Made by a program: the position numbers and the translations under genes
Notes under the pieces: generated by a model
Told to the model about the DNA's origin: nothing
Databases searched by the model: none
Seen by the model: the letters and a program-made list of their open reading frames with translations, nothing else
Part shown: in pieces, positions 12,581 to 55,965 of the stretch
Position numbering within the stretch: position 1 is the first letter of the stretch
Layout of the letters: the number at the start of each line of letters is the position of its first letter
Source: Dehalococcoidia bacterium
GTDB taxonomy: Bacteria; Chloroflexota; Dehalococcoidia; Lucifugimonadales; GCA-2712585
Direction of reading: 5' to 3'
NCBI GenBank assembly: GCA_963665075.1
Contig: OY762063.1
Coordinates: 502,844 to 566,843 of the forward strand
Length of the DNA: 64,000 nt

Positions 12581-12604
12581 TAACTACTCACGCCGATTCC
12601 GAGG

Positions 12605-13159
12605 CTACTTGAACCTTGAGTCTCTTTCCGACAGGACTCTAACGGCGGTGGCGATTCGTTGGAACGGCTCCAACAAATCCACCTGGTTGAAGACCTGCTC
12701 CAACGCCTCACGGACGGATTCATAGTCAGACTCATAACCATGATGGGTTGCAGCAGTTATCGGCTGAAATCCGCCTATGCCACTCTCAAGGCGATTTTGT
12801 TTTGCTGACCCTCCACCAGGGGACAAGCTTTCTCCGTATTTCTCCAAATGGATAACCGGAACGTCAACGCGTTCTCTCAATTCCAGCATCATTTTGCTCT
12901 CCACCAGGCACAAATGGGGTGGCGCTTTTAGTGCTTTCACCAAGGGCGAGCCTATCAGTTCGTTGAACAGGTATGGCCTTAGGGTGTCTCCGTAAAGCGC
13001 TTTCTGAGCGCCAGTCGGACGCGTAGGCAGAGTGCAGTGAAACTCTTGCGGCACACCCCGCCGATCTATGACCATTATGCCGCCCATGTATCCTGCATTG
13101 TCGCTGGTGCTGTGAACCGAAAAGTATGCGATGAATGTATCGTTTTCGTGATTGCTCAT
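12605..13159 (-). CDS. Hypothetical protein (no family recognised), first gene of a two-gene operon with the SNF2-Mrr fusion
   Basis: 184 aa. Its stop lies 24 bp upstream of the SNF2-Mrr start on the same strand, and an SD-like GAGAGGAAG precedes the ATG. The composition is the same AT-richer one as the downstream gene. Confidence 0.7.
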   Translation of the reverse strand: MSNHENDTFIAYFSVHSTSDNAGYMGGIMVIDRRGVPQEFHCTLPTRPTGAQKALYGDTLRPYLFNELIGSPLVKALKAPPHLCLVESKMMLELRERVDVPVIHLEKYGESLSPGGGSAKQNRLESGIGGFQPITAATHHGYESDYESVREALEQVFNQVDLLEPFQRIATAVRVLSERDSRFK

Positions 13160-13257: not shown

Positions 13258-13331
13258 GCCCCTGTAGCTCAACTGGATTGAGCGTCCTCATGCTAAGTCG
13301 AAGGTTGCGAGTTCAAGTCTCGTCAGGGACG
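13258..13331 (+). tRNA. tRNA-like sequence with a degenerate anticodon stem (possible pseudo-tRNA); identity uncertain
   Basis: A 74-nt cloverleaf can be drawn: GCCCCTG-TA-GCTC-AACTGGATT-GAGC-G-TCCTC-ATGCTAA-GTCGA-AGGTT-GCGAG-TTCAAGT-CTCGT-CAGGGAC-G. The D arm and the T arm (GTTCAAGTC) are good. The acceptor stem has one C.A mismatch and the anticodon stem has only 3 of 5 pairs. In the canonical register the anticodon reads GCU, but there is no long variable arm as expected for tRNA-Ser. Confidence 0.5.
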
Positions 13332-13599: not shown

Positions 13600-14697
13600 C
13601 TACCCCGTCAACCCCCACGCCACCCCCACGTCCTCCCCCAACTCCCGCAACTCCTCCACCACCGCCGGCAGCAACGGAACCCCCAACCTCCGCCGCTCCT
13701 CCTCCTTCGCCGCCTCCGGATCCCCCGCCACCAACACCCGCTCCACCCCCGCCACCGGCTCCGTCCGATGCACCCGGTCAAACATATCGTCCATTTGCCC
13801 CCGAAACTCCTCCAACGGACGGAACGCGTCCACCCGAATCGCGCAGAAGAAATGCCCCACGCTCCCATAGCTTTCATAAGCGTCCAACTGAATCGACGCC
13901 CCGTGCCCCGGCAAAATCCCGCACAGCACGTCCACCAGCATCCCCAGCCCGTACCCCTTGTGGCTCCCCAACTCCGGCGTGCTCCCCAACGGCAGCAGCT
14001 TCCGCGCCTCCACCGCCTCCGACGCGCTCGACGTCGGAACCCCCTCGTCGTCCGCCGCCACTCCCAACGGTATCTCCGCCCCCAACCGCGTCGTCAATAT
14101 CAACTTCTGGAACACCATCGCGCTCGTCCCCACGTCCAGACAGAAGTCCGGCTCGCTTCCCGACGGCGCGCCCACGCTGATAGGATTCGTCCCATACACC
14201 GGCTGACGTCCCCCCGTCGGCAGCACGATCGGATTGCTGTTCGTGCTCGAAATCCCGATCATCCCGTGCGGCACCGCCATCATCGAAAAATACTGCGCCG
14301 CCCCGAAGTGATGGCTGTTCTTCACCGCCACCATGCCGATGAACGACTCCCGCGCCTTCTCGATTGCCATGTTCATCGCCCGCACCCCCGCCGATAGCCC
14401 CAACCCCAAATTCGCGTCCAGCAGCGCCGTCACCGGCGTCTCCCGCACCACCTCCAGCGGCGCGTCGGGCTTGATTTTCCCGCTCTGAATGTCCCTGACG
14501 TAGATGCGCCCCAGGTTGTTGTTGGACATCCCATGCGTCTCCACGCCCCGCAGGTCGGCGTACACCAGCACGTCCGCCGCCATCGCCGCATCCTCCGACG
14601 GAACCCCCAGCTTCGCCAGCACCTCCGTCGCAAAGACCCTGAGTCCGTCCGCGTCTACCCGAATCCGATTCTCCGATGCCTGACCTTCTCCGCTCAT
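13600..14697 (-). CDS. Ldh_2-family (malate/L-lactate/sulfolactate dehydrogenase type 2) oxidoreductase
   Basis: 365 aa. It contains VLVYADLRGVETHGMSNN...AVKNSHHFGAAQYF...GSHKGYGLGMLVD, characteristic of Ldh_2. Confidence 0.85.
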   Translation of the reverse strand: MSGEGQASENRIRVDADGLRVFATEVLAKLGVPSEDAAMAADVLVYADLRGVETHGMSNNNLGRIYVRDIQSGKIKPDAPLEVVRETPVTALLDANLGLGLSAGVRAMNMAIEKARESFIGMVAVKNSHHFGAAQYFSMMAVPHGMIGISSTNSNPIVLPTGGRQPVYGTNPISVGAPSGSEPDFCLDVGTSAMVFQKLILTTRLGAEIPLGVAADDEGVPTSSASEAVEARKLLPLGSTPELGSHKGYGLGMLVDVLCGILPGHGASIQLDAYESYGSVGHFFCAIRVDAFRPLEEFRGQMDDMFDRVHRTEPVAGVERVLVAGDPEAAKEEERRRLGVPLLPAVVEELRELGEDVGVAWGLTG

Positions 14698-14967
14698 TCC
14701 ATCGCCTCACTCTGTCATTCTGAGAATCTACACCCTGCCTACCGTCATTCGCGCACCCCTTCCATACATTCCCGCCGCCCCCTACCGTCATTCCCGCGCC
14801 CCCTCCGTCATTCCCGCGCAGGCGGGAATCCATCCCCCTTCGCCTCACTCTGTCATTCTGAGGTCTCCCGAAGAATCCCCATACCGCTCACCCTGAGCCC
14901 ATCCTGTACCACATACCCCCGCTCATCCTGAGCCTGTCGAAGGACTAAGCGCGAGCGTCCCCCAACC

Positions 14968-15972
14968 CTACAAATTAAACTGCGGGTCCACCCAATCCTT
15001 CTCCTTGCGATACACCTGAATCCGCCACCGCTGATCCTCCACCACGTAGATGTTCCCCTCCCCGTCAATCTCCACCGCCACCGGCGAGTAGAAACGCTGC
15101 TCCGGCTCCAAACTTTTCGCCCGCAGCCGCGCCCTCCGATAGTCCGGGTTGTCGTCCAGAAACTGCTGCGCCCACTTGGAAGGCTTGTCGGCGTTCCCAA
15201 TGAACGTGGTCAGATGCCCGCCGTCCCCGTCGAACACCTCCACCTTGTTGTTCCACCAGTCCGTTATGTAAACGTCCCCCTCCGAGTCCACCGCCACGTC
15301 GCTCGGAAGATTCAACTCCCCAACGCCCGTGCCCGGCGTCCCGAAGGTCATCATGTACTGACCGTCCGACGTGAATTTCTGCACCCGATGGTTGTACCAG
15401 TCGGCGACGAACACGTTGTCATATTTGTCCACCGCAATCCCCCACGGACGTATCATCTGCCCGTCATCAGTTCCCTCGGAGCCGAAGCCTCCGAGGTACT
15501 GACCGTCCGCGGTAAACCTCTGCACCCGATGATTCAAATTCTCCGTGACGAGAAGCTCCCCCCGGCTGTTGAACGCCAGTCCCGCCGGCCCGTTCAACTG
15601 CCCCGGCCCCGAACCGGCGACGCCCCACTTCGACAGGAAATTCCCCTCCTTGTCGAAAATCGTAATCCGATGCAGCCACTCGTCCGAAAGGTACAGCCGT
15701 CCCTCCGCGTCCAACGCCACCGAAGTCCCCCAGACCCATTCCCCGTCGCCTTCGCCCGCGCCGCCGAACTCCTTGATGAACTCCTCGTCCGTAGTCATAA
15801 GCGTCACCCGCTGGCACGGCTCCGCCTCCGACCCCCGGCTCAACACGTAAATCATCCCCTCGTCGCCCACCGCCAAGTCCAGCGGGTTGCGAAACCCCGC
15901 GCCCCCAGGCGTGCCCATCCCCATCGCGTGCCTGTAGTTGAACGTCCGCCCCCTAACCATTACAGTCTGCAT
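14968..15972 (-). CDS. NHL-repeat six-bladed beta-propeller protein (cassette copy 1)
   Basis: 334 aa. It has repeated blades of the type G.G.GQ(F/L)N.P.G(I/L)A(V/F)D..G..YV(A/T)D..N.R(V/I)Q.F. There is no obvious signal peptide. Confidence 0.85.
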   Translation of the reverse strand: MQTVMVRGRTFNYRHAMGMGTPGGAGFRNPLDLAVGDEGMIYVLSRGSEAEPCQRVTLMTTDEEFIKEFGGAGEGDGEWVWGTSVALDAEGRLYLSDEWLHRITIFDKEGNFLSKWGVAGSGPGQLNGPAGLAFNSRGELLVTENLNHRVQRFTADGQYLGGFGSEGTDDGQMIRPWGIAVDKYDNVFVADWYNHRVQKFTSDGQYMMTFGTPGTGVGELNLPSDVAVDSEGDVYITDWWNNKVEVFDGDGGHLTTFIGNADKPSKWAQQFLDDNPDYRRARLRAKSLEPEQRFYSPVAVEIDGEGNIYVVEDQRWRIQVYRKEKDWVDPQFNL

Positions 15973-16030
15973 TCTTTTTCCCCTTTTGCGATTGTTTGCG
16001 ATTCCAGTTGATGCGTGTTAGTCGGGAAAT

Positions 16031-17440
16031 TTAGCCGAACTGGTACTCCCTCGTCGATGCGATTATCTGCATCGTACCGACCACCCGATCCGAGAAGCTG
16101 CGCGACTCCCCGCCGCCGTTTCCGTTGCCGGATTCGCTCTTGCTCACGTGGTCGATAAGCTCCTCCCGCGTCGCATCCTCCACCTGCACAGGCCCCATCA
16201 GATCCAGGCACCCGTCAACCATCCCCGCCGCGTCCAACGCGCCACGGGTTGACATCCTCTCGATGATGTTCTGCACGCCGGGAAGCTCCTGCTTCACCAT
16301 CTGATCGGCGGCGAAGTTGATACGACGCAGCAACGCGCCGCTGTCGATCCACTCCCCGCCCGTGTGCCAGCCCTCCACGCTAGGCGGGTCCAGCAGCGCC
16401 TGCCCCTGGAAGTTGCACTCCTCCGCCAGCAGCGTAATCCCCGGCTTGGGATACTGGAAGTCGCCGATGAGACGCATCGTGCCCGCGATAAGCTCCGCCG
16501 GACTCTTCACCTTGGCGTACCACACGCTCTCATCCTTGAAGAAGTCCGAGTTGAACAGCGTCCTCAGCGTCGAGCGCATGTCGTACCCGCTGCTGATGAA
16601 GGCGTCTCCTATCAGGTTGATGGCGACGGGGTCCCTTGGCGCCACGTCCTGCCAGCTGGGCACCTGCACCTCGTCCGCCACGAAGAAGTTGTACAGATGA
16701 CGGGCGACGAATCGCGCCGTCGCCGGCTGACGAATCACGATGTCGATGATGTCCTCCCCGTTGAACCGCCCCCGATGTCCCAGGAAGTACTTCTCCGTAT
16801 CGTCGTGGTCGTCTTCCCGATACTCGAACTCCCACAGAAACCGCCCGTAGGGGTTCCTGGGCAGCTTGGTCGAAATCGTCCAGCCCGTGAACGCGCGGGC
16901 GCACTCCTTCACGTCCTCCTCCGTATAGTTCCCCTGCCCCATCGAGAAAAGCTCCAGCAGCTCCCGACCCCAGTTCTCGTTCGGCGCGTCCTTGTGATTC
17001 TCGTTGTTGTCCAGCCAGAAGATCATCGCCGGGTCCTTGGAAAGCTCCACCAGAATCTCCCGATAGTTCCCCAGCGCGCACTTCCGAAACGTCTCAATCT
17101 GGCGCAACATCTGGTTCCCGTTGTCCACCTTGGAGTAGCCCGTGGCGAAGACGTGATGCCAGAACAGCACCATCTTCTCCTCCAACGGCCTGGGATTGTT
17201 GATCATCCTGAACAGCCAGTTGCCCTGCATGTTCAACGGATTGCCAGGATTCCGAAACCCGTACATGTGACGAAACAGAATCCCCTCGTGGAAGGGCGGA
17301 ATGCCGTGAGCCTCCGGGTCCAGAAGCTCGTCCACCGTCGCCTCGTAGCCCTTGGCCGCCCTTCTCTCGAGCTCTTCCCGCGATGCGCCGAATCCCGCGC
17401 GACGCATCAGGTGCGCCATCAATCCAATATCCTTATCCAT
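16031..17440 (-). CDS. DUF1800 domain-containing protein (cassette copy 1)
   Basis: 469 aa. The N-terminus is LMAHLMRRAGFGASREELERRAAKGYEATVDELLDPE and there is an internal NENWGRELLELFSMGQGNYTEEDVKECARAFTGW, typical of DUF1800. Confidence 0.85.
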   Translation of the reverse strand: MDKDIGLMAHLMRRAGFGASREELERRAAKGYEATVDELLDPEAHGIPPFHEGILFRHMYGFRNPGNPLNMQGNWLFRMINNPRPLEEKMVLFWHHVFATGYSKVDNGNQMLRQIETFRKCALGNYREILVELSKDPAMIFWLDNNENHKDAPNENWGRELLELFSMGQGNYTEEDVKECARAFTGWTISTKLPRNPYGRFLWEFEYREDDHDDTEKYFLGHRGRFNGEDIIDIVIRQPATARFVARHLYNFFVADEVQVPSWQDVAPRDPVAINLIGDAFISSGYDMRSTLRTLFNSDFFKDESVWYAKVKSPAELIAGTMRLIGDFQYPKPGITLLAEECNFQGQALLDPPSVEGWHTGGEWIDSGALLRRINFAADQMVKQELPGVQNIIERMSTRGALDAAGMVDGCLDLMGPVQVEDATREELIDHVSKSESGNGNGGGESRSFSDRVVGTMQIIASTREYQFG

Positions 17441-17455
17441 CTCCCAACTCCTTCT

Positions 17456-17549
17456 TTGTCATTCCGACCAGACCTTGTCATTCAGCCAGACTCTATCATC
17501 CCAACCAAACCCTGTCATTCCGGCCGGACCTTGTCATTCTGAGCGAAGC
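17456..17549 (+). repeat. Stutter of ~19-bp half-units (TTGTCATTCCGACCAGACC-like) ending in a family-G element (GTCATTCTGAGCGAAGCGAAGAATC)
   Basis: Read directly. Four degenerate TGTCATTC-type half-units precede the complete element. Confidence 0.75.
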
Positions 17550-17731
17550 GAAGAATCTCATCCTCACGTCGCCACATACCACCCCTATTGTATTCATAAT
17601 TTCGCCCTATGGCTACCTCTACCCCACATCCGATTGAAATCCCACCCCTTCTTACCCCCTCTCCCATCCACACGTATCGTCATTCCCGCGAAAGCGGGAA
17701 TCCAGTCCCCTCTTATCCCCTCTCCCATCCT

Positions 17732-17873
17732 GGAGACCTTTGCATAACCCCCCTCAGCAAGCCGACAAACCTCTTCCCCCTTGATGGGGGAAGATTGAGA
17801 TGGGGGTGATTCGGGCGAGGTACATGACGTTTCTGGCAGTTACGCAAAGGTCTCCTTGACGGGGGAAGGTTAG
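17732..17873 (+). repeat. Rearranged composite of the MITE arms (family H) with family-C hairpins
   Basis: GGAGACCTTTGCATAAC ... CCTCTTCCCCCTTGATGGGGGAAGATTGAGATGGGGG ... GTTACGCAAAGGTCTCCTTGACGGGGGAAGGTTAGG. Confidence 0.8.
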
Positions 17874-18406
17874 GCCTGTCCTGAGCTTGTCGAAGGGATG
17901 GGGGTAATCCCCACCCCAAAAACTGCCACCTTTCCCTTGCCACAAACCCCCAACTCTGATACCATCTCTCTATGAAACATACATACCAATTCCGCAACTT
18001 CACAGGAGGCTCCACCAAACCCAATCCTCCTTCCGGTAAAAGCCCCCCATTCGTTCTTACCACAACAATATAACGAATGCCAAATTCCCCCCCAATCAGC
18101 TATGAAAACCCCCTTCGAATCCCACCACAGAAAAAAAGGAAGCCAAACAAAACGAATCACCTCTACTACAACAACCCCCCCTCCGTCATTCCGGCGAAAG
18201 CCGGAATCCAGTCCCCTCCCCCCTCTTCTCCCTTCCCCCTTGACGGGGGAAGGTTAGGATGGGGGTGAAATCCCTCCCCGCTCATCCTGAGCCTGTCGAA
18301 GGGCTCGTCGAAGGGTCGAGCATCCCCCAACCATCCTTTCATTCTGAGGAGGCCCCGCGACGAAGAATCTCCCGCTGGTAGATGACACCCCCCACCCTTG
18401 CATAAC

Positions 18407-18621
18407 CGTCATTCTCGCCCACCCACTCGTCATTCCCACGCACCCACTCGTCATTCCCACGCACCTACTCGTCATTCCCGCGCACCTTCTCGTCATTCCC
18501 GCGCACCTTCTCGTCATTCCCGCGCACCTTCTCGTCATTCCCGCGCACCTTCTCGTCATTCCCGCCCACCCTCTCGTCATTCCCACGCACCTTCTCGTCA
18601 TTCCCGCGTAGGCGGGAATCC
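18407..18621 (+). repeat. Tandem array of nine 21-bp half-hairpin units (CGTCATTCCCGCGCACCTTCT) ending in one complete family-A hairpin
   Basis: Unit starts fall at 18407+21k for k=0-9. The last unit is CGTCATTCCCGCGTAGGCGGGAATCC (18596-18621). Confidence 0.9.
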
Positions 18622-18717
18622 ATCGCCCCCACATAACCCCTTCCCCTCCAAACACAACCCATCTATCATAGTATCCACAACCCATCCCCCAAACTCCAAC
18701 CCAAAGGAGGCCCCCCA

Positions 18718-19074
18718 ATGCCACAACTCGTACAGGAAAAATGCGTCGCCTGCCGCCGTGACGCCCCCAAAGTCACCGAATCCGAAATCGCCGAACTCCA
18801 CCCCATCGTCGCCGATTGGGACTTGATAGAAGTGGACGGCGTCAACCGCCTCCAACGCGGCTTCCGCTTCCGCAACTTCCAGCAGGCAATGGACTTCTCC
18901 ATAGACATAGGCCGAATCGCTGAGGACGAAGGCCATCATCCCAAGCTCGTCACCGAATGGGGCCGCGTCACCATCGACTGGTGGACCCACAAAATCCGCG
19001 GCCTCCACCGCAACGACTTCATCATGGCCGCCAAAACCGACCGCGCCTTCCAGTCAACCCTTCCGGCGGATTAA
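18718..19074 (+). CDS. Pterin-4-alpha-carbinolamine dehydratase (PCD/DCoH family)
   Basis: 118 aa. It contains the EDEGHHPKL...W.TH core typical of PCD, and an SD AAAGGAGG lies upstream. Confidence 0.88.
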   Translation: MPQLVQEKCVACRRDAPKVTESEIAELHPIVADWDLIEVDGVNRLQRGFRFRNFQQAMDFSIDIGRIAEDEGHHPKLVTEWGRVTIDWWTHKIRGLHRNDFIMAAKTDRAFQSTLPAD

Positions 19075-19158
19075 CCGCCTTATCTGTTGACACTAAGTCG
19101 CATCCCCCGCTAAAGTGGCACGCGCAGCCATCGCCCAAATTCAGACCGAAAACGCCCA

Positions 19159-20187
19159 ATGCCAATCAATCTCTCCCAAAAACTCAGGAACAAGCCCAAG
19201 GACTCCGAGGTAGCCGCAGGCGTCCGCGAATACAACGAACGCTACAGGACGGGCAAGCGCGGCGAGTGGGAAGAAAAGAAGCGCGCGTCCAGGGAATTCG
19301 CCATCCTTTACTATGATCTGGTCACGGACTTCTTTGAATACGGATGGGGCCGTTCCTTCCACTTCGCGCCCAGAAAGCCCGGCGAGAGCTTCAAGGCGTC
19401 GCTGGCCCGCCACGAACGCCGCATAGCGGACACCCTCGATCTCAAACCCGGCATGGTCGCCGCCGACCTGGGTTGCGGCGTCGGCGGGCCGCTCATGGAA
19501 ATCGCCCGATACTCCGGCGCCAATATCGTCGGCGTCAACGCCAATGAGTATCAGCTCAAACGCGCCCGCAAGCTGACGAAAGAAGCCGACCTGACCCATC
19601 TCGCCGACTTTCTCCACTGCGACTTCCTCAACGTGGACGCTCCCGACGAGTCCTTCGACGCCGTATACGCCATCGAAGCCACCTGCCACGCGCCCGACAA
19701 GGTCAGCGTCTATGGCGAGGCCTTCCGTTTGCTTAAGCCGGGCGCCTGCTTCGCCAATTACGAGTGGTGCATGACCGATCGCTTCGACCCGGACAACCTC
19801 CTGCACCAAAGAATCAAGGCGGACATTGAGCTGGGCGTCGGCGTCGTCCAAATAGATGGCCGGCAAACCGTTGACGACGCTTTTGAAGCGGTGGGCTTCG
19901 AAGTGTTGGAAATCCGCGACCTGGCAATTCAGGACGGGCCGTCCATTCCCTGGCATCAACCCCTGGTTGGTTCGGGCCTGTCCTTCGCCAGCTTTCGCAG
20001 TTCCCGAATCGGTCGCTGGATTACCCAGAACATCCTGAAAATTCTTGAGACGCTGCGAATTGCGCCGAAAGGAAGCGTTCACGTCTCGGAGATGCTGAAC
20101 CTCGGCGCCGATGCCCTGGTCGAGGCCGGACGGCTCGGCATCTTCACCCCCATGTATTTCATCCACGCCCGCAAGCCCGCATCCTGA
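19159..20187 (+). CDS. Sterol C-24 methyltransferase (ERG6/SMT)-like SAM-dependent methyltransferase
   Basis: 342 aa, collinear from recall with yeast ERG6 over essentially its full length:
- YYDLVTDFFEYGWGRSFHFAPR, compared with [21 protein letters not shown].
- The SAM motif DLGCGVGGPLMEIAR.
- AVYAIEATCHAP.
- YEWCMTDRFD.
- IELG.G.
- A C-terminal IFTPMYFIHARKP, compared with LFTPMMLFVARKP (Sterol_MT_C-like). Confidence 0.8.
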   Translation: MPINLSQKLRNKPKDSEVAAGVREYNERYRTGKRGEWEEKKRASREFAILYYDLVTDFFEYGWGRSFHFAPRKPGESFKASLARHERRIADTLDLKPGMVAADLGCGVGGPLMEIARYSGANIVGVNANEYQLKRARKLTKEADLTHLADFLHCDFLNVDAPDESFDAVYAIEATCHAPDKVSVYGEAFRLLKPGACFANYEWCMTDRFDPDNLLHQRIKADIELGVGVVQIDGRQTVDDAFEAVGFEVLEIRDLAIQDGPSIPWHQPLVGSGLSFASFRSSRIGRWITQNILKILETLRIAPKGSVHVSEMLNLGADALVEAGRLGIFTPMYFIHARKPAS

Positions 20188-20219
20188 ACGTCATAGACGC
20201 TAACGTCTAGTCAATTCGG

Positions 20220-20771
20220 ATGCGTCGCGGCGATTCCTTCTCCGTTAGAGTCACCCGCGTCAAGGACGGCGACGGCATGATCGCCGTCCGCCTCGGCTGG
20301 TTCCGACGCCAACGCGAATCCCTCGAAATCCGCCTCCACGCCATCGACGCCCCCGAATACGACCAGCCCCTCGGCCCCGAATCCGCCCGCCGCCTCCGCA
20401 AAATCGCCGAAGGCAAGCGCTTCACCCTCAAAGTCTGGGAACCCCAAGACCCCTACGGACGCGTCGTCAGCGTCCTCTACCAAAACCGCCTCAACCGCTC
20501 CGTCAACCGCCAAATGGTCGAATCCGGCCTCGCCTACCGCTTCACCCGCTACGGCGAAATGCCCGGCCTCAACCTCGCCAACGCCGAAAGAAACGCCCGC
20601 CGTCGCAAGCTCGGCGTCTGGAGCCTCCCCAAAGGCGGCGTCCGCCCCTGGCATCACCGCCGCCGCCAGCGCGCCGCCGCCAGCCGCCAAAAGAACCTCC
20701 TATATCAGACCCTACGCCTCGCCTTCAAAACCCTCGCATGGCTCCTCCGCAAACTCCTCCGCCTCCGCTAA
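20220..20771 (+). CDS. Thermonuclease (staphylococcal nuclease, SNase-like) family protein with a basic amphipathic C-terminal tail
   Basis: 183 aa. It contains V.RV.DGDG...IRLHAIDAPE...G..A...L....G......DPYGR.V and E.NARRRKLGVWS, typical of the SNase fold. Confidence 0.8.
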   Translation: MRRGDSFSVRVTRVKDGDGMIAVRLGWFRRQRESLEIRLHAIDAPEYDQPLGPESARRLRKIAEGKRFTLKVWEPQDPYGRVVSVLYQNRLNRSVNRQMVESGLAYRFTRYGEMPGLNLANAERNARRRKLGVWSLPKGGVRPWHHRRRQRAAASRQKNLLYQTLRLAFKTLAWLLRKLLRLR

Positions 20772-20792
20772 CCCCCACCCCCTCTACCCGTA

Positions 20793-20930
20793 CCGTCATT
20801 CCCGCGCAGGCGGGAATCCACCCCCTCCCTTCCCCCTCGACGGTGGAAGGTTAGGATGGGGGCGACTCCCTTCGCCACTCACCCTGAGCACACTCCCCCG
20901 CTCACCCTGAGCTTGTCGAAGGGTCGAGCG
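20793..20930 (+). repeat. Intergenic cluster of palindromic repeats (families A, C, B)
   Basis: CCGTCATTCCCGCGCAGGCGGGAATCCA; CCTTCCCCCTCGACGGTGGAAGGTTAGGATGGGGGCGA; CGCTCACCCTGAGCTTGTCGAAGGGTCGAGCG. Confidence 0.9.
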
Positions 20931-21016
20931 GAGGGGGCCGGGGGGAGGCGAAGGGTAACGGCGAAGGGTCGAGCCCCCCGTTGACCCTCCCCCAAACTCC
21001 CGCTACCATCCCCCCC

Positions 21017-22003
21017 ATGCTATTCATCAACCGCAATGAAGTCGCCCAACTGCTGGACCTCGACGCCCTCATCGACGCCCTCGCCCCCGCGATGGCCGAA
21101 CTCTCCGACGGCAACATCTCCCAACCCCCACGAATCGGCGCCCAAATCAGTGAGCGCGAAGGCAACCTCCTAGTCATGCCCGCCTACCTCCCCGGCTCCC
21201 ACTCCCTGGCCGTCAAACTCGTGAGCATCTTCCCCCATAACCACGCCCTCGGAATCCCCAGCCACCAAGCCCTAATCGCCGTCTTCGACGCCCAAACCGG
21301 CGCGCCAGCCGCCATCATGGACGGCGAACACATAACCGCCATGCGCACCGCCGCCGGCTCCGCCCTCGCCACCCGCCTGCTCGCCCGCCCCGACGCCGGC
21401 GTCCTCGCCATCCTCGGCACGGGCGTCCAAGCCAAAGCCCACGCCATCGCCATCCCCCGCGTCCGTCCCATTTCGGAAATCCGAATTGCTGGACGAGACG
21501 CTGCCAAAGCCAAATCCCTTGCCCAAGAACTTTCGACTGAACTCAACATCACCGCCTCAGCCACCGACTCCTTCAAAGACGCCGTATCCGACGCCGACGT
21601 GATCTGCGCCTGCACCCACGCCGACACCCCCGTCCTGCATGGTCAATGGCTCAACCCCGGCGCCCACGTCAACTCCGTCGGCCTCAACTTCCAAGGACGC
21701 GAACTCGACGAAGAAGTTGTGCGTCGTTCAAAAGTCTTCGTTGAATCGAGAGAAGCCTCCCTCGCCGCGCCCCCCGCCGGCGCCAACGACCTCACCTGGC
21801 CCATCCGAGACGGCATTATCGACGAATCACACGTCCTCGCCGAAATCGGCGAACTCGTGACGGGCGTCCACCCCGGCCGCGCCTCGAACGACGAAATCAC
21901 CCTCTACAAATCCGTCGGCGTAGCCGCCCAGGACGCCATAGCCGCCCGCATGGTCCTCAACACCGCCATAGAAAAAGGCATCGGCCTCAACATAGAAATG
22001 TAG
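21017..22003 (+). CDS. Ornithine cyclodeaminase / mu-crystallin family protein
   Basis: It begins MLFINRNEVAQLLD and has a Rossmann motif ILGTGVQAKAHA. The ORF track allows an earlier ATG at 20981, which lies within repeat sequence. Confidence 0.85.
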   Translation: MLFINRNEVAQLLDLDALIDALAPAMAELSDGNISQPPRIGAQISEREGNLLVMPAYLPGSHSLAVKLVSIFPHNHALGIPSHQALIAVFDAQTGAPAAIMDGEHITAMRTAAGSALATRLLARPDAGVLAILGTGVQAKAHAIAIPRVRPISEIRIAGRDAAKAKSLAQELSTELNITASATDSFKDAVSDADVICACTHADTPVLHGQWLNPGAHVNSVGLNFQGRELDEEVVRRSKVFVESREASLAAPPAGANDLTWPIRDGIIDESHVLAEIGELVTGVHPGRASNDEITLYKSVGVAAQDAIAARMVLNTAIEKGIGLNIEM

Positions 22004-22021
22004 GGACGGTTCGCGAACCCC

Positions 22022-22290
22022 CTATCTCTTCTCCCTTCCCCCTTGACGAGGGAAGGCTAGGATGGGGGTGAAATCCCACCCACCAACAAATCCCGTAGGG
22101 GCGATTGGCGAATCTCCCTTCCCCCTCCGCTCACCCTTCCCTGTAGGGGCGACCGGCCGGTCGCCCCTACCCAGCTGCGCTACAATCTCATCCTCAAGAC
22201 GCAACCCCTTTCGTCATTCCGGCGAAAGCCGGAATCCATCTTCTCCTCTTATCCCCTCTCCCATCCTGGGAGAGGGTTAGGGTGAGGGCG
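22022..22290 (+). repeat. Intergenic cluster of palindromic repeats (families C, D, A, F)
   Basis: CTTCCCCCTTGACGAGGGAAGGCTAGGATGGGGGTGA; GTAGGGGCGACCGGCCGGTCGCCCCTAC; GTCATTCCGGCGAAAGCCGGAATCC; CCCTCTCCCATCCTGGGAGAGGGTTAGGGTGAGGGC. Confidence 0.9.
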
Positions 22291-22296
22291 CGCCCC

Positions 22297-23421
22297 CTAA
22301 TTCTTCCCCAACACCCGCGGCCCGTACAGCCGCACCGAATTGTCCCACAGAATCTTCCGCTTCACCTCATCGGCGATGTCATGGCCGAGGAAGCTGTCCA
22401 CCGCCCCCGGAATCGGCGCGTCCGGGTGCGGCCAGTCCGTGTTGAAAATCAGATTGTCGTTCAACTGCGACGCCGCAAACTCCAACTGCCCCTCGTCCGC
22501 GTCGCACGCCACGAAGCACTGCCTCGCGAAATACTCGCTCGGTGTCAACCGCACCTCCTCGCCGTACTGGAACCGCCCCTGACGCCCCACGGCGTGGTCG
22601 TCCATCCGACTCAACCACCACGGCACCCACCCCGCATTCGCCTCCAGAAACGACACCCGCAGGTTCGGGAACCGCTCCAGCACCTCGCCGAAAATCAACG
22701 TCCCCATCGCCAGCATCGCGTCCAGCGGAAACGACAGCGCGTGGCTCACCGACGCCAGCGTCGGCGTGGTCGTGTAGTCCTTGAACACCCTCTGCTGCGA
22801 CCCGCCCCCGTGGAACGACGCCGCCAGGCTCAACTCGTCCAGCGTCTCCCAAAGCGGATCAAACTCCGCGTCCGACCACTTCCGCGAACCGCCTGGATCC
22901 GGCAGGTTGATAGCCGTCGCCTGCGGACACGGCCCCATCCGCCGCGCCTCCTCGATGGCCTCGTTCACGTCCAACAGCGTCACCTGCGCGATGAACTGCA
23001 CCCGTCCGTCCGAGTCCCTGCAATAGTCCGTCGCCCAGTTGTTGTAGGCGCGCACCAACGCCGCCTGCAACTTCGGGTCCGTGATGCTCGACGAAGTGGC
23101 GCTGTTCCCGTTCGTGGGGAACCCCACCTGAATGTCCAGCCCCTCCTTGTCGATCTCCGTCAAACGGTCGGGCAGCGCCCACCAGTTGCGCCAGGCGTCC
23201 CCGAACCGCTCCTCGCAGTCGGCGAACACGCTCTCCGGGCGGACCGACCCGCGACCCTCCGGAAACGCCTCGCAAGGATGGTAGTTGAACAGATACCGCC
23301 CCACGTGCCCGCTCACCAGCGGACGCCGATGGTGGTACGGCTGCTCCACGTAATTGTCCCAAATATCCAGCGGCTCCTGCATATGCCCGTCCCCGTCAAT
23401 AACCCGATAACCGTTCCTCAT
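22297..23421 (-). CDS. Amidohydrolase_2-family metal-dependent hydrolase
   Basis: It begins MRNGYRVIDGDGHMQEP, giving the D-x-H motif, and has NTDWPHPD near the C-terminus. The start at 23421 follows the SD GGAGGG. The ORF track start is 23490. Confidence 0.85.
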   Translation of the reverse strand: MRNGYRVIDGDGHMQEPLDIWDNYVEQPYHHRRPLVSGHVGRYLFNYHPCEAFPEGRGSVRPESVFADCEERFGDAWRNWWALPDRLTEIDKEGLDIQVGFPTNGNSATSSSITDPKLQAALVRAYNNWATDYCRDSDGRVQFIAQVTLLDVNEAIEEARRMGPCPQATAINLPDPGGSRKWSDAEFDPLWETLDELSLAASFHGGGSQQRVFKDYTTTPTLASVSHALSFPLDAMLAMGTLIFGEVLERFPNLRVSFLEANAGWVPWWLSRMDDHAVGRQGRFQYGEEVRLTPSEYFARQCFVACDADEGQLEFAASQLNDNLIFNTDWPHPDAPIPGAVDSFLGHDIADEVKRKILWDNSVRLYGPRVLGKN

Positions 23422-23537
23422 TTCACCCTCCAAAATTCGATTTCCAACGCGCCTTCCCATCCCCCTCACCCAGGAGAATACTCCTCGCACAGCTTATTGT
23501 CTAGAAGGGAAAGCGGCTGCGGCATTCCAAATATCTG

Positions 23538-25763
23538 CTACTCCTTAGATCTAACTTGCTGGTTTAACAGAATCCTCGCTAACCTCAGCTCATCGTATTC
23601 AAATGAATCTCCCAGTCTTTCCTTCACTAAAGACAAGAGCACATCCCCATTCTCACCAAAAGCCTTCTCAATTTCCATCAGTCTATCCGCTGTTGGAGCC
23701 ATCTGACTAACGTCTACGAAAACCCCATTGGCCGCAATTCTCTCAATATGCCCCAATATGGTGGAACGAACCAGCCCCCTTTTCGCAGCTATTTCATCCA
23801 CGGTTAGACCTTCTTCCACCAGCTGCCTTGTCTTCTCATGAGTTGGGCTAAGACGATTCGCATGTACAGGCCTTCCGTCGCCATCGTCCCTCCCACTCCG
23901 TGTCGGCGGCCTAGAGATGGTTATACCGTTGGCCTCTACATATTCCCGAATCACCCCAAGAAACTGCTCGCCGTACTCTTCCAGCTTCAACCGACCCACC
24001 CCGTGTATCCTAGAAAATTCCCCTTCATCCTGGGGGTAAATCGCCGCCATCTGCCTTAAGGACACGTCCCCGAACACCACGTAAGGCGGGACGCCTCGTT
24101 CTCCGGCCAACCGCCTTCTCAAAGCCCTCAATTCTTCAAACAGCCCTTCATCAAACTGCACAGGGTCCGTCGATTGACTATACCGCCGCCGCTTGACCTC
24201 CTCCGCCGGCCTGATCAAAATAATCGCCTCACGCTTCCGTAAGAACTCCTTTCCCGCTTCTGAAAGTGACAGCGTCGGATAATCCCCCTTGTTGCGAACC
24301 AGCAGCCCCTTCGCCTGCAGCTGTCCAACCAACTCCTTCAACTGTTTCCGGCTGAAATCCCTGACGATTCCGTAGACGCTCAATCTCTCGTGCCCAGCGG
24401 CGAGAATCTTCTTGTTCCTGCTCCCCACCAACACCCTCACAACGTGGGTCACCCCGTACATTTCTCCCGTGCGCACCACCGCCGAAAGTATCTTCTGAAC
24501 TACCTCGGTAGCGTCGAACGCCTTCTCAGGCTCAAGACAAACATCGCACGCCCCGCAATTATCCTCGCCGTATTGCTCCCCAAAATATCCAAGCAAGAAC
24601 CGGCGTCGACACGTAGGACTCTGCGTATATTCCACCATCTTGTCCAGCTTCTCCCGTGCGTTGCGCCGTTCCGCCTCGTCTTCCATCCGGCTGATGAAAT
24701 ACTCCTGCTTGCTCCTGTCCCCAAGGCTGAAGAAAGCTACGCAATCGCTGGGCAGCCCGTCCCTGCCGGCGCGCCCCGTCTCCTGATAGTAGGCTTCGAT
24801 GGACTTGGGCAGACTATAGTGAACGACCAACCTCACGTCCGGCTTGTCAATCCCCATCCCGAAGGCGATGGTCGCCACAATCACCGGCGTCCTATCCTGA
24901 ATAAACTTGTCCTGAGTCTCCCTTCGCGTTACTGCGTCCAGCCCGGCGTGATAAGGCAACGCCGAAACGCCCTGGCCCCGCAACTGGCCGGCCAATTCCT
25001 CCGTGTCCTTCCTGGAGAAGCAATAGATGATTGCGGACTCACCTTTGTGCGATTCAAGAAGCCCCAGCAGTTCGTCAAATGCATTGCCGTCCCTCGGACG
25101 CACCGAATAGCTGAGGTTGGATCGGTTGAAGCTGGAAACATACATCCGGTCTTCGCCTATCCCCAGCTGGCCGATAATGTCTTCCCGCACCCTCTCCGTC
25201 GCGGTAGCCGTCAGCGCAATCACGGGCGTCGAGGGAAAGCTCCGCCTCAATTCCAACAGGTTGCGATAATCAGGACGGAACTCGTGCCCCCATTCGGAAA
25301 TGCAATGAGCTTCGTCAATCGCAATCAGACTTACTCTTATTCCCTCAAGGAACCGCCTAAATCCCGGAATTGCCAGACGCTCAGGCGCCACGTACAGCAG
25401 CTTTACGGCCCCTTTGTGCACTTCCCCCTGTATCCGCCAAGTCTCCCTGTTGGGCAGGCTGGAGTTGATGAATCGAGAAGGAATGCCGTTCGCATTGAGC
25501 GCGTCCACCTGGTCCTTCATCAACGCAATCAATGGGGAGACAACCAGCGTCACGCCTTCGAATATCAATGAAGGAAGCTGATAGCATAGCGACTTCCCGC
25601 CACCCGTTGGCATAACCGCCAGCACATCCCGATTCCCTAGTACATCGCGGATAATCTCCTCTTGCGGATGCCAAAAGCTATCGTAGCCAAACTTGTCCTT
25701 GAGGACTGAAATTGGCTCAACGGCGGTGTTCATCTGTGCAGGCGTATTCCCAACTACTACCAT
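23538..25763 (-). CDS. recQ: ATP-dependent DNA helicase RecQ with an extended C-terminus (HRDC plus an extra HTH-like module)
   Basis: 741 aa. It contains VMPTGGGKSLCYQLP, the DEAH box (AIDEAHCISEWGHEFRPDY), ATIAFGMGIDKPDVR and a Zn-binding segment CRRRFLLGYFGE...CGACDVC. An alternative start lies at 25733. Confidence 0.92.
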   Translation of the reverse strand: MVVVGNTPAQMNTAVEPISVLKDKFGYDSFWHPQEEIIRDVLGNRDVLAVMPTGGGKSLCYQLPSLIFEGVTLVVSPLIALMKDQVDALNANGIPSRFINSSLPNRETWRIQGEVHKGAVKLLYVAPERLAIPGFRRFLEGIRVSLIAIDEAHCISEWGHEFRPDYRNLLELRRSFPSTPVIALTATATERVREDIIGQLGIGEDRMYVSSFNRSNLSYSVRPRDGNAFDELLGLLESHKGESAIIYCFSRKDTEELAGQLRGQGVSALPYHAGLDAVTRRETQDKFIQDRTPVIVATIAFGMGIDKPDVRLVVHYSLPKSIEAYYQETGRAGRDGLPSDCVAFFSLGDRSKQEYFISRMEDEAERRNAREKLDKMVEYTQSPTCRRRFLLGYFGEQYGEDNCGACDVCLEPEKAFDATEVVQKILSAVVRTGEMYGVTHVVRVLVGSRNKKILAAGHERLSVYGIVRDFSRKQLKELVGQLQAKGLLVRNKGDYPTLSLSEAGKEFLRKREAIILIRPAEEVKRRRYSQSTDPVQFDEGLFEELRALRRRLAGERGVPPYVVFGDVSLRQMAAIYPQDEGEFSRIHGVGRLKLEEYGEQFLGVIREYVEANGITISRPPTRSGRDDGDGRPVHANRLSPTHEKTRQLVEEGLTVDEIAAKRGLVRSTILGHIERIAANGVFVDVSQMAPTADRLMEIEKAFGENGDVLLSLVKERLGDSFEYDELRLARILLNQQVRSKE

Positions 25764-25797
25764 TCAAAGCCCGGAAATCGGCGTACCCCTCCCTAGA

Positions 25798-27057
25798 CTA
25801 ATCCACCACCCGCTGAAACGCCCGCCGCAGCCTCGGCCCAATCTCCCGCAGATGCTCCAACGACGCGTTGCTGAACGCCAGCCGCACGTGCGTGTCCGCC
25901 ACGCCCTCCTTGTCCACGTAGAAATTCGTCCCCGGCGGAAACAACAACCCCTCGTAAGCCGCCGCTTCCGACACCTCCGTCGAAGTCGCCCCCAGACACT
26001 CGAACCAGAAGAAAAACCCGCCGCCCGGCGCATTGAACCGCACGTATGGCTCGCAATGCTCCCGCAGCGACTCCGCCAGCGTCGCGCACTTCTCCGCATA
26101 CACCGGCCTCATCCGCCGGATGTGCGGGTCCAGCCGCCCCGACCCGATGAACTCCGCCAGCATGTGTAGCAGCAACGGACTCGTCCCCATGTCGAACCGC
26201 ACCCGCCCCAGCGCGTCGATGTGCTCCTTCGACGCCTGAATCCACCCCGCCCGCAGCCCCGTCGCGATAACCTTGCTGAACGTCCCGATTTTCAACACCC
26301 CCGCGCCCTCCGCCATCGAATATATCGACCTCGGCGGCGCCTCGTTGAAGAACAACTCGCTGTACGTCGCGTCCTCCACAATCAACACCCGCTCCCGCGC
26401 GCATAAATCTATCAACGCCGCCCGTCGCGCCTCCGTAAGCGTCGTCCCCGTCGGATTCTGATAATCGGGATTCAGATAGACGAACTTGACCCGCTTCCCC
26501 TCCGACTTCGCCCTCTGAATCGCCTCCGCCACCCCGTCCACTGAGATGCCGTCGTCCTCCACCATCACCTCAATCAACTCCGCCATGTGCCCCCGAATCG
26601 CCCGCGTCGTCCCCGAATACGACGGCCCCTCGACAACCACCACGTCGCCGGGGTCGATGAACGCCTGGCACAGATTGTCCAGACACCCCGACCCTCCGTT
26701 GTGGACGATGAAATTGTCCGGCTCGAAACTCATCCCGTCCAACACGGCCTGCCGCTCCGTCATCGCCTCCCGCAGCCCCTCGAACCCCAGCACCCCGCCG
26801 TACCGCAACGCTTCATCCGGCTTGCCGTTCAGGATGCGCCCCAGCGCCGCCTCCAACTCCCCCGACGGCAGCGTCGCCGCGTCGGGAATCCCCCCTGCGG
26901 CGATAATCGGGTCCGGATGCGGCGCCGGCAGCTGCCAGCCCGCCCCCGCGTCCGTCGCCGTTCCCGCCCCAACCGTCAACGCCGAGTCCGACAAAAAGTC
27001 CCGAATGTCCGCCTTTGACCACGCCTGAACCGCGGCGCTTCCCGAATTTGTAGTCAT
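25798..27057 (-). CDS. PLP-dependent aminotransferase, class I/II fold (ARO8/LysN-like)
   Basis: 419 aa. It contains GGSGCLDNL, NPDYQNPTG and the Lys motif GTFSKVIATGLRAGW. Confidence 0.85.
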   Translation of the reverse strand: MTTNSGSAAVQAWSKADIRDFLSDSALTVGAGTATDAGAGWQLPAPHPDPIIAAGGIPDAATLPSGELEAALGRILNGKPDEALRYGGVLGFEGLREAMTERQAVLDGMSFEPDNFIVHNGGSGCLDNLCQAFIDPGDVVVVEGPSYSGTTRAIRGHMAELIEVMVEDDGISVDGVAEAIQRAKSEGKRVKFVYLNPDYQNPTGTTLTEARRAALIDLCARERVLIVEDATYSELFFNEAPPRSIYSMAEGAGVLKIGTFSKVIATGLRAGWIQASKEHIDALGRVRFDMGTSPLLLHMLAEFIGSGRLDPHIRRMRPVYAEKCATLAESLREHCEPYVRFNAPGGGFFFWFECLGATSTEVSEAAAYEGLLFPPGTNFYVDKEGVADTHVRLAFSNASLEHLREIGPRLRRAFQRVVD

Positions 27058-27318
27058 TTCTTTCTCCCTTTACTGCTTACGTCTGTTCGACGCGCAAAAG
27101 CACCCCCCAAACGCTTGCCAAAGTCTACCACATAACGCAATCCCACAAAGCAACCCCCCACCCGACCCACAATGCATCCTCGCTCACCCTGAGCCTGTCG
27201 AAGGGTCGAGCGCCGCCGCCGTCATTCCGGCGAAAGCCGGAATCCAGTCTTTTCCCTTCCCCCTCGATATAGCCCCTTGCATAACCGTCATTCCCGCAAA
27301 GGCGCGAATCCGACATCA

Positions 27319-28062
27319 TCAAGGCTCATATCCGCACACGCCCACTTCTTCGGTGTCCTCGCAGTTGACCCCTCGCTCCTCCATCAAGTCGTCAACAAAT
27401 CGGTCTACGTCATCCCTGTTATTGGTATTCAACACGTAGACCTCATACCCCTGCACATAGACAAAATCCTCTGTGTGTCTTTCAATCCGCAGAGCATGAT
27501 TTGGAATTTGCAGATAGGCAGACTTATGCAGCATATACAGTTCCACGGTATAACCTCCTGGTTCAACATCGTACCAATAGAAGAACTCCTCCGCCCCTGG
27601 GTTGTAGAGTCTGGCTTTGTAAGAAAGTTGATGGTTGTCCAGCCTCTCTAATATCCCTTCCCTGCGAAGTTCCCATTCGTCCTTCGGCTGTTCCTCGGAA
27701 AACCACCACGGAATCGACAATATCCCCAACAAGATGCCCAAAGCTAATATGCCCATTACTGAAAACGGCGCCAGCCTGTAGAAGAAGCTATCCGGTTTCT
27801 GCGGGTCGCCATTATCATCCTCGGCAGTCCCCTCCAACCACAACCGGTGCGCGTGATACACATTCCAAACCAAAAGCGGTCCAATGGCAAACACAATAGC
27901 CGCCGGTACCGGCATCATATCCAGCCTGAACAAGGCTATGAACGACGCCAGCAGTGCACATACCAAATAATGAACGGCGAACGCTCGAATGCGTCCCAAC
28001 AGCAGATATCCCAAGCCAAAACCGGGAATGAACGTAAGAAATACTGCTGCGAGATGAATCAT
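27319..28062 (-). CDS. Hypothetical membrane protein (N-terminal TM helices, C-terminal soluble domain)
   Basis: 247 aa with hydrophobic segments (FLTFIPGFGLGYLLL, LVCALLASFIALF, AIVFAIGPLLVW, VMGILALGILLGILSIPWW). It is AT-richer than its neighbours. No family recognised. Confidence 0.6.
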   Translation of the reverse strand: MIHLAAVFLTFIPGFGLGYLLLGRIRAFAVHYLVCALLASFIALFRLDMMPVPAAIVFAIGPLLVWNVYHAHRLWLEGTAEDDNGDPQKPDSFFYRLAPFSVMGILALGILLGILSIPWWFSEEQPKDEWELRREGILERLDNHQLSYKARLYNPGAEEFFYWYDVEPGGYTVELYMLHKSAYLQIPNHALRIERHTEDFVYVQGYEVYVLNTNNRDDVDRFVDDLMEERGVNCEDTEEVGVCGYEP

Positions 28063-28199
28063 GTCGTTCCAAGTCTCCTATCAACCCATCAACAATAAAT
28101 CTACCATCCGTAGCCCCCTCCCCTCCCCCAAAAACGTGCGTCTCCACCACCAAAATGTTACCATCCCCCAAACCCCCAATCCCCACCCAGGAGGCCCCC

Positions 28200-31208: not shown

Positions 31209-31442
31209 TATCTTGTTTCTCTATATTGTGGTTGCTCGAACCTGTCTACAGCTTTGTCTTTGACTGCAAATTCGGCACACCTTACTGATACCGAGCACTC
31301 TGACTTAAGCCAGACCTCATTATGCCACAATTAAGCAACTAACTCAGCATCTTTTTTGTAATGCAAATTATCACCTTCAAATGTTATCATGGCCTCAGGT
31401 CTTGGCATTGAGCGAAGCGAATTTAATGGCGACACAGAATAG

Positions 31443-40209: not shown

Positions 40210-40216
40210 CTTCTCC

Positions 40217-41653: not shown

Positions 41654-41818
41654 AACTCCCCCTCCGTCTACCATTGTTTTTCGACTTGAACCGTCACAAC
41701 AGAATCTATCACCCCGCAATTTAAGCGTCAATGCACACACCCAAAATCGAGGACTCCAAGACAAAGCAGAACTACACATGGTTGACGCTAGTAATGGCAA
41801 TCGTTATTATCGCTTGAA

Positions 41819-47041: not shown

Positions 47042-47135
47042 ATCCCCGCGCCACACGACAATGGAACCAGCCTTCTGCAGGGGCAGGTTTGAAACCTGCC
47101 CCCGCACCCACAAACAAACCACCGGAGGACAAGAA

Positions 47136-53182: not shown

Positions 53183-53256
53183 TACCCTTGGGGAGACTCG
53201 AACTCCCGACCTTCACCGTGGCAAGATGATGCTCTACTCCACTGAGCTACAGGAGC
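53183..53256 (-). tRNA. tRNA-Gly (anticodon GCC)
   Basis: The reverse complement folds as GCTCCTG-TA-GCTC-AGTGGAGTA-GAGC-A-TCATC-TTGCCAC-GGTGA-AGGTC-GGGAG-TTCGAGT-CTCCC-CAAGGGT-A. The D, anticodon and T arms are good. The acceptor stem has one C.A mismatch and two G.U pairs. CCA is not encoded. Confidence 0.75.
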
Positions 53257-55802: not shown

Positions 55803-55965
55803 CCCCGATGACTCTAAGACCCTTCCCCCATTACCTACATCGTCATTCCGGCGAAAGCCGGAATCCATCCCCTCTTATCCCTTCCCCCCTGATGGGGGAA
55901 GGTTAGGATGGGGGTGACTCCCCGGAACATCCCACCCCACAACTCCACAAACAGGAGAAAAAACC

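Follow-up and report, generated by a model that had tools for sequence, protein, structure and literature searches.

The sterol C-24 methyltransferase gene and its sequence signatures

The DNA stretch analyzed here, henceforth the window, comprises 64,000 nucleotides of a Dehalococcoidia bacterium (phylum Chloroflexota; assembly GCA_963665075.1, contig OY762063.1, positions 502,844 to 566,843), and encodes on its plus strand a protein of 342 residues belonging to the sterol C-24 methyltransferases (SMTs), the family of yeast ERG6 (Table 1). The open reading frame (ORF), closed by a stop codon, displays exactly the position and length given in a first-pass annotation, which had taken it for an ERG6/SMT homologue in a bacterial genome, an assignment supported by (i) the presence of the Sterol_MT_C domain, (ii) the collinearity with ERG6, and (iii) the nesting with bacterial SMTs of assayed activity. 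In Pfam, both profiles that the annotation had suggested as a check are detected: Sterol_MT_C (PF08498; E = 1.6e-26, score 92.6 bits, cut-off 21.7), which is matched over profile positions 1-65 of 66 and is thus full-length, and the class I S-adenosylmethionine (SAM) methyltransferase domain Methyltransf_11 (residues 103-197, E = 8.7e-19), matches of a strength not expected by chance. The N-terminus, MPINLSQKL, fits the consensus MPxKLSxxLKD of its clade. Judged by these features, the gene is an intact, genuine bacterial copy of the ERG6/SMT family.

The collinearity with yeast ERG6 proposed in the first-pass annotation extends over 338-341 aligned residues with 40-43% identity. The ERG6 numbering was checked in two ways: 27 of the 27 residue numbers quoted in Brown & Welander 2025 (bioRxiv) fall on the stated amino acids, and the alignment reproduces three statements of that work on other sequences, including LXNI01016685, with F81 and G249, and LXNI01006544, with a gap at position 249. 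The motifs DLGCGVGGP, AIEATCHAP, YEWCMTD and FTPMYFIHARKP are all read in the protein, so that the SAM motif, AIEATCHAP, YEW.MTD and the C-terminal end of the annotation stand; the first residue of Region I, given there as tyrosine, is instead a phenylalanine (FEYGWGRSFHF). This residue corresponds to ERG6 position 81, a functionally relevant site, the role of Region I and the effect of the Y81F exchange being described by Brown & Welander 2025. Region I follows the pattern (Y/F)E(Y/F)GWGxxFHF and Region II the pattern DxGxGxxGP, and the 25 residues reported in the same study as conserved in functional SMTs are all kept. Besides these 25 residues, the bacterial and yeast enzymes have IEATCHAP, YEW.MTD and FTPM....ARKP in common, whereas the bacterial protein lacks ca. 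23 N-terminal and 13 C-terminal residues of ERG6, displays F81 for Y81 and V249 for D249, and resides in a bacterium, outside the context of an ergosterol pathway.

Beyond the family profile, NCBIfam returns only weak matches to the Rossmann core, with no equivalog found. The best match in the PDB is MitM (E = 2e-22), aligned only over the Rossmann core residues 43-198; the search retrieved no true relative among the solved structures, in agreement with Brown & Welander 2025, according to whom no structure of an SMT is available. An AlphaFold2 model computed from a 25-sequence alignment has a mean predicted local distance difference test score (pLDDT) of 39.7, too low to be of use.

Table 1. 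Position and basis of the features of the SMT locus, in window coordinates
Feature	Position	Strand	Basis
SMT coding sequence, sterol C-24 methyltransferase family	19159..20187	+	ORF, Pfam, ERG6 identity, dN/dS
Region I, sterol-binding aromatic motif FEYGWGRSFHF, residues 59-69 = ERG6 81-91, F81	19333..19365	+	residue mapping
Region II, SAM-binding DLGCGVGGP, residues 103-111 = ERG6 125-133	19465..19491	+	residue mapping; inside Methyltransf_11 match
Region III AIEATCHAP, residues 171-179, including Glu173 = ERG6 E195	19669..19695	+	residue mapping
Codon GTC = Val227 = ERG6 position 249; GGN (Gly) in nearly all close relatives	19837..19839	+	alignment
Sterol_MT_C domain, residues 276-340	19984..20178	+	Pfam
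Sigma-70-like promoter match TTGACA-18-TAAAGT, ca. 43 nt upstream of ATG	19087..19116	+	consensus match only
Pterin-4a-carbinolamine dehydratase (Pterin_4a), context only	18718..19074	+	Pfam; adjoins SMT in 2/80 related loci
GC hairpin GGCGG-ATTAA-CCGCC, end of pterin gene, weak terminator-like site	19065..19079	+	consensus match only
Staphylococcal-nuclease-like protein (SNase), 32 bp downstream, context only	20220..20771	+	Pfam; adjoins SMT in 1/80 related loci

Relatives of the enzyme and the residue at position 249

The description of bacterial SMT homologues as rare in the first-pass annotation proves overstated. Brown et al. 2023 (Nat Commun 14:1859) report 7,966 metagenomic homologues, more than 5,360 proteins match the window SMT at E<=1e-10 in the protein database, and a pattern-limited scan of one genome per GTDB species discloses at least 308 loci, and thus species, with a relative; the best 80 of these at least 308 loci served for the locus comparisons. 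In a library reduced to clusters of 50% identity, 412 of these match at E<=1e-30, the clade of the window SMT accounting for about one representative. The best 120 homologues are all ca. 341 residues long and 66-74% identical, many of them encoded on Mb-scale contigs, and one database protein (P0001), encoded on a contig of 2,699,242 bp, is 100% identical. The best 80 loci comprise (i) 70 from Chloroflexota, mostly Dehalococcoidia and including one Caldilineaceae, (ii) four from Acidimicrobiia/Acidimicrobiales, (iii) two from Latescibacterota, (iv) one from Gemmatimonadota, and (v) three unclassified. The window thus adds one more species to a large published SMT clade of sponge-associated Chloroflexota and is no rarity; according to Kelly et al. 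2022 (Microbiome 10:164), SMT1/ERG6 is enriched in the metagenome-assembled genomes (MAGs) of sponge symbionts, where it is often scattered on the chromosome.

The identity of the window SMT to the 80 MAG loci and to sponge-metagenome contigs is 65-74%, against 40-43% to ERG6. In a distance-based neighbor-joining tree, rooted on ERG6 as the single eukaryotic outgroup, the protein is sister to the SMT of the Dehalococcoidia isolate S8_365, inside a Dehalococcoidia group; it nests with the assayed bacterial SMTs and not with generic class I methyltransferases, the placement that the annotation had named as a refutation, and groups with sponge-associated rather than eukaryotic SMTs. Many isolate names among the relatives presumably belong to sponge-microbiome MAG series. 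The closest metagenomic contigs derive from Petrosia ficiformis, Aplysina aerophoba and Sarcotragus foetidus and are among those named in Brown et al., which is direct evidence of a sponge setting, and the organism is, from the company of its SMT, most likely a sponge-associated Dehalococcoidia. The ca. 65% SMT identity maintained across four or more phyla suggests horizontal spread of the gene among sponge symbionts, as argued for steroid genes by Kelly et al. 2022.

A conspecific strain (L162; ERZ21830300 ctg686483l) shares the gene order of window positions 13600-29882 and supplies an allele for comparison. Between the two alleles, the synonymous divergence (dS) is 0.164 and the nonsynonymous divergence (dN) 0.016, with a dN/dS of 0.10, comparable to that of the neighboring genes, which argues that the SMT is under purifying selection and is not a decaying relic; the gene is intact and full-length in three assemblies. 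On the L162 contig, the RecQ gene is broken into three ORFs, the nuclease gene is cut short, and the SMT allele (P0121) displays G127D in the SAM motif; given the fragmented neighbors, these breaks and the exchange are probably assembly errors.

Two relatives belong to the set assayed in vitro by Brown et al. 2023, in which alkylation of desmosterol and/or 24-methylenecholesterol was shown for 20 of 24 bacterial SMTs, three of them making 24-isopropyl sterols; both relatives are among the 10 sponge-symbiont SMTs, 8 of which methylated desmosterol. The A. aerophoba enzyme Ga0209021_1000146 (L088) is 66.3% and the P. ficiformis enzyme LXNJ01000389 (L082) 65.5% identical to the window SMT over the full length. 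Both resemble it in length (341-346 residues), in the pair of domains, in the motifs of Regions I-IV and in their place in the neighbor-joining clade; Ga0209021_1000146 further shares Phe81. Both assayed enzymes carry Gly249, whereas the window enzyme carries Val249.

Position 249 sets the window SMT apart from its clade. Among 131 locus-derived SMTs, glycine occupies this position in 92 and valine in the window enzyme only, whereas among 122 close protein matches, glycine is found in 115 and valine in three, all from the window species. These three are the window protein and two alleles at least 90% identical to it, from independent assemblies of the same species, one of which preserves the gene order of the window at its locus; the recurrence in independent conspecific assemblies argues that the Val227 substitution is real and fixed in the lineage. 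In the wider SMT family, asparagine and aspartate dominate at this position and glycine is rare (3 of 112), so that Gly249, near-universal in the sponge-symbiont clade, reads as a hallmark of that clade, which the window enzyme lacks.

The residue bears on the predicted products, since Gly249 is reported as necessary for propylation, that is, for the formation of 24-isopropyl sterols. When G249 of the Chlamydiae SMT was exchanged for ten further residues, valine included, each variant kept C28 products and none gave C30, only alanine, serine, asparagine and threonine still giving C29, while Phe81 alone favors repeated methylation (Brown & Welander 2025). Of the two traits of propylating SMTs, the window enzyme lacks Gly249 and displays phenylalanine at position 81 and/or 83 (F81, Y83). 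On account of the valine, it is predicted by analogy to make 24-methyl (C28) products and not to propylate, despite F81, and a second methylation appears unlikely.

Genomic context in the window and at related loci

Genes were called by codon-position GC content, and the 40 largest predicted proteins were scanned against Pfam across the 64 kb. None of the 40 proteins matches a squalene/oxidosqualene cyclase, squalene epoxidase, cytochrome P450 (P450), ERG4/24 reductase, Rieske/KshA oxygenase, 3-beta-hydroxysteroid dehydrogenase, CYP51 or sdmAB-type protein, and a motif scan of the six frames of the window reveals no signature of oxidosqualene cyclase (OSC) or squalene-hopene cyclase, in line with the first-pass annotation, which had seen no squalene monooxygenase, OSC or demethylase gene in the window. 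A de novo sterol cluster, understood as an OSC and at least two other sterol genes beside the SMT, was not found in these 64 kb.

At 68 of the 80 related loci, no steroid-type gene lies within 10 kb of the SMT, so that a solitary SMT is, as far as these neighborhoods tell, the norm in the clade and not an oddity; clustering of all flanking ORFs of the 80 loci yields no universal partner gene. The other 12 loci, all from Dehalococcoidia/Chloroflexota, share a steroid-type cluster around the SMT, which is also found at L082 (L016, L019, L027, L045, L046, L047, L052, L055, L061, L064, L065, L067 and L082; SMT at ca. 10001-11020, genes within ca. 10 kb). The cluster comprises (i) a short-chain dehydrogenase/reductase (SDR), (ii) the SMT, (iii) a flavin adenine dinucleotide (FAD)-dependent amine-oxidase-type enzyme, (iv) a GPP34-P450 fusion, (v) a resistance-nodulation-division (RND) transporter with a sterol-sensing domain, (vi) a Rieske oxygenase with a KshA C-terminal domain, (vii) a major facilitator superfamily (MFS) transporter, and (viii) an LppX/LprAFG-like lipoprotein. 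Among solved structures, the Rieske protein is closest to 3-ketosteroid 9-alpha-hydroxylase (E = 2e-28). The P450 is remote from all of them, with best PDB E values of ca. 1e-16 to 1e-19 and bacterial CYP51 among the top matches, and at such values its assignment to CYP51 or to a catabolic family is ambiguous. The assayed LXNJ01000389 SMT lies in this SDR-SMT-FAD oxidase-GPP34/P450-RND-Rieske cluster, whereas Ga0209021_1000146 is, like the window SMT, essentially solitary; the cluster is absent from the window, whose only SDR is 39 kb away and 34% identical.

At none of the 80 loci, those with the steroid-type cluster included, is an OSC encoded within 10 kb of the SMT, and the content of this cluster differs from that of the published OSC-CYP51-ERG24-sdmAB clusters. 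The ERG24-CYP51-LSS clusters of Kelly et al. 2022 resemble the present case in their ecological and taxonomic setting, with Dehalococcoidia carriers and a sometimes scattered SMT1/ERG6, whereas no ERG24, CYP51 or LSS is found in the window. By analogy, the cluster of the relatives supports sterols as the substrate class of the SMT and hints at sterol uptake and modification rather than synthesis.

Two further observations concern the cluster. The GPP34 (Golgi phosphoprotein 3 domain)-P450 fusion, of ca. 675 residues at L047:12577-14598, has ca. 2,070 database homologues; those among the matches listed (P0273-P0392) derive from Chloroflexota, Nitrospira, Deltaproteobacteria and Rhodospirillaceae with ca. 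65-68% identity, the same cross-phylum pattern as that of the SMT. Inside or beside the cluster, a second, divergent SMT paralogue is encoded (L045:11285-, L064:15310-, L085:4592-), 36-40% identical to the window SMT, with Met81, Phe or Trp83, Ile249 and Gln223, and with T78S, F89L and, in part, L341M at conserved residues.

The immediate neighbors of the window SMT, the pterin dehydratase and nuclease genes, are as the first-pass annotation had described them; a functional link of either with the SMT was rejected, given how rarely they adjoin it at related loci (Table 1). The SMT appears to be a stand-alone transcription unit. Its promoter match agrees with the consensus at 10 of 12 positions and is the best site in the region, where five sites are found against 1.2 expected; terminator-like sites are not enriched over shuffled sequences, and the hairpin ahead of the SMT is thus weak. 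In the upstream spacer of 1.3 kb, Rfam detects no known RNA, riboswitches included, and two tRNAs are the only such genes in the window. Tandem repeats occupy 18407-18608 and 17456-17539 in this spacer, upstream of the pterin dehydratase gene, with 9.6 copies of a 21-bp unit (93% matches, consensus CGTCATTCCCGCGCACCTTCT) and 4.5 copies of a 19-bp unit, respectively. Similar short palindromes of the form 'GTCATTCC...' recur in further intergenic stretches of the window; their translations read 'IPAKAGIQ' or 'SFRPDLVI'.

The gene content and density are bacterial across the window, and eukaryotic contamination was rejected on these grounds. The genes include amidases, amidohydrolases, an ATP-binding cassette (ABC) solute-binding protein, RecQ, Mrr-type and other restriction-related genes, and an acyl-CoA dehydrogenase. 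Three paralogous pairs, each composed of a DUF1800 protein (ca. 470-530 residues) and an NHL-repeat beta-propeller (ca. 330-345 residues), lie at 14968-17440, 39175-41800 and 54387-56964, the third being recognized through N-terminal sequence similarity and not by Pfam, and two more NHL-repeat genes at 57248-58231 and 60977-61861. Two closely similar polysaccharide-deacetylase-like genes (45575-46498 and 52074-52994; 306-307 residues), the N-termini of which are near-identical, flank a segment containing the third of the low-GC islands described below, and a third such paralogue is located at 47061-48101.

The window displays an extreme strand bias, far beyond usual bacterial values, its plus strand containing 23,295 C against 14,536 G (skew ca. 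-0.23). At four-fold degenerate sites of plus-strand genes, 3,140 C stand against 456 G (skew -0.75), the coding-strand skew of minus-strand genes is the mirror image (+0.57), and that of intergenic DNA is -0.27; the bias does not depend on gene orientation and runs monotonically through the window. The independent conspecific assembly (L162) has a skew of -0.19, related Dehalococcoidia loci a median absolute skew of 0.03, and a literature search found no published account of such a bias. Three low-GC islands, at ca. 9713-13159, 29865-32480 and 49684-51726, with a GC content of 0.47-0.49 against ca. 0.61 and a skew near zero, look recently acquired. They contain an SNF2-helicase/Mrr fusion (955 residues), a pentapeptide-repeat/FRG protein and a 680-residue protein without family. 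A tRNA-Ser gene (13258-13331) abuts the first island, and a tRNA-Gly gene (53183-53256) lies ca. 1.5 kb past the third, beside a separate Mrr restriction gene (53354-54247).

Predicted activity, substrate and products of the enzyme

Taken together, the gene probably encodes a functional SAM-dependent sterol C-24 methyltransferase of the sponge-associated Dehalococcoidia/Chloroflexota clade, with C28 products and preferably an exogenous sterol as substrate. In such an enzyme, a sterol such as desmosterol would be methylated at its delta-24(25) double bond by a methyl cation from the SAM bound at Region II; the carbocation so formed would be stabilized by the aromatic Region I, and its deprotonation would yield 24-methylene or 24-methyl sterols, a mechanism that represents established SMT chemistry. 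Val249 would halt the products at C28 (24-methyl), without 24-ethyl or 24-isopropyl sterols, despite Phe81. A sterol taken from the host sponge or its surroundings, a plausible option raised in the first-pass annotation, is the tentatively favored substrate, at a little under an even chance, because (i) no OSC is found near the SMT at the 80 loci or in the window, (ii) the cluster of the relatives is rich in transport genes, and (iii) a precedent exists in Chl_SMT, from a Chlamydiae drinking-water MAG, an active bacterial SMT in a genome without other recognizable sterol genes, proposed to modify host sterols (Brown et al.). Chl_SMT differs from the window enzyme in its phylum and in carrying G249 and propylating.

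Several points weigh against this account. The 25 conserved residues are necessary and not sufficient, the full set being present in 4 of 11 inactive SMTs (Brown & Welander 2025). Of the two assayed relatives, LXNJ01000389 (L082:9204-10226) reads GCGIGGS, with serine at ERG6 position 133 (P133S, a change shared with L086), whereas Brown & Welander 2025 state that P133 is retained in all tested SMTs, and it may be one of the inactive enzymes. The status of Ga0209021_1000146 as a propylating SMT is itself obtained by elimination, as the second of two such A. aerophoba enzymes, of which only one lies in a sterol cluster (Brown et al. 2023), a status with which its F81 and G249 agree. As to the products, the effect of G249V was measured in a different SMT background, and an A. 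aerophoba enzyme with G249D still made C29, so that a second methylation is possible, especially with F81. As to the substrate, the window represents only 2.4% of the 2.70-Mb chromosome and sterol genes may lie elsewhere; Kelly et al. 2022 describe OSC-CYP51-ERG24 clusters in some sponge Dehalococcoidia, and a complete sterol pathway elsewhere on the chromosome is quite possible.

The last point leads to the strongest rival, in which the same activity would be the final step of a de novo pathway whose squalene monooxygenase/OSC, CYP51, ERG24 and sdmAB genes lie elsewhere on the 2.7-Mb chromosome. ERG24-CYP51-LSS clusters occur in 115 of 537 sponge MAGs, Dehalococcoidia among them, with steroid genes often scattered (Kelly et al. 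2022), an OSC is found in the same cluster or MAG for 13 of 24 tested SMTs (Brown et al. 2023), and at locus L143, an unassigned contig, a more distant, 49%-identical SMT adjoins an OSC-like ORF of 1,230 residues. Against this stand the absence of such genes from the window and of any OSC near the SMT at the 80 closest loci, together with the transport-and-modification type of the relatives' clusters, and this origin of the substrate is considered rather unlikely, though a serious contender.

The two other rivals concern the activity itself. The SMT gene could have been acquired horizontally and since become inactive or begun to decay, the exchange of glycine for valine at position 249 being part of the decay; Val227 is indeed unique to the window species within the clade, the conspecific allele P0121 carries G127D in the SAM motif, and the intact yet inactive SMTs mentioned above show that a well-preserved sequence may be silent. 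A dN/dS like that of the neighboring genes, the full-length ORF in three assemblies and the complete set of conserved residues in the window copy nevertheless make this improbable, the more so as every position-249 mutant of the Chlamydiae SMT kept C28 activity and the fragmented genes around P0121 suggest assembly errors. Somewhat less probable still is the methylation of a non-sterol isoprenoid, such as squalene or another triterpenoid, known from the SMT-like triterpene methyltransferases of Botryococcus: sterol-making genes were not found nearby in the window, and that relatives act on desmosterol in vitro is no proof of the native substrate, but the residues of Regions I, III and IV conserved in sterol-active SMTs are all kept, the identity to enzymes of the assayed set is ca. 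66%, and orthologues co-localize with the KshA-like Rieske oxygenase and the RND transporter with a sterol-sensing domain.

The importance of bacterial SMTs stems from the use of 24-alkylated steranes as biomarkers of eukaryotes and sponges, a point for which Brown et al. 2023 have already made the experimental and Kelly et al. 2022 the genomic case. The specific value of the functional C28-forming SMT proposed here is modest and lies in a natural valine variant at the claimed propylation gate, in a background ca. 27% diverged from Gly-bearing orthologues and on a closed 2.7-Mb chromosome; paired with a Gly-bearing orthologue, it offers a clean comparison for the claim on position 249. A bolder version, on balance unlikely, holds that the bacterium makes no sterols of its own, that its solitary, selected SMT methylates delta-24 sterols of the host sponge, and that the exchange of Gly249 for valine switched a clade permissive for multiple alkylations to C28 products only. 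If true, it would constitute a naturally occurring test of the proposed control of 24-isopropyl sterol formation by this residue and would provide direct evidence of symbionts remodelling the sponge sterol pool.

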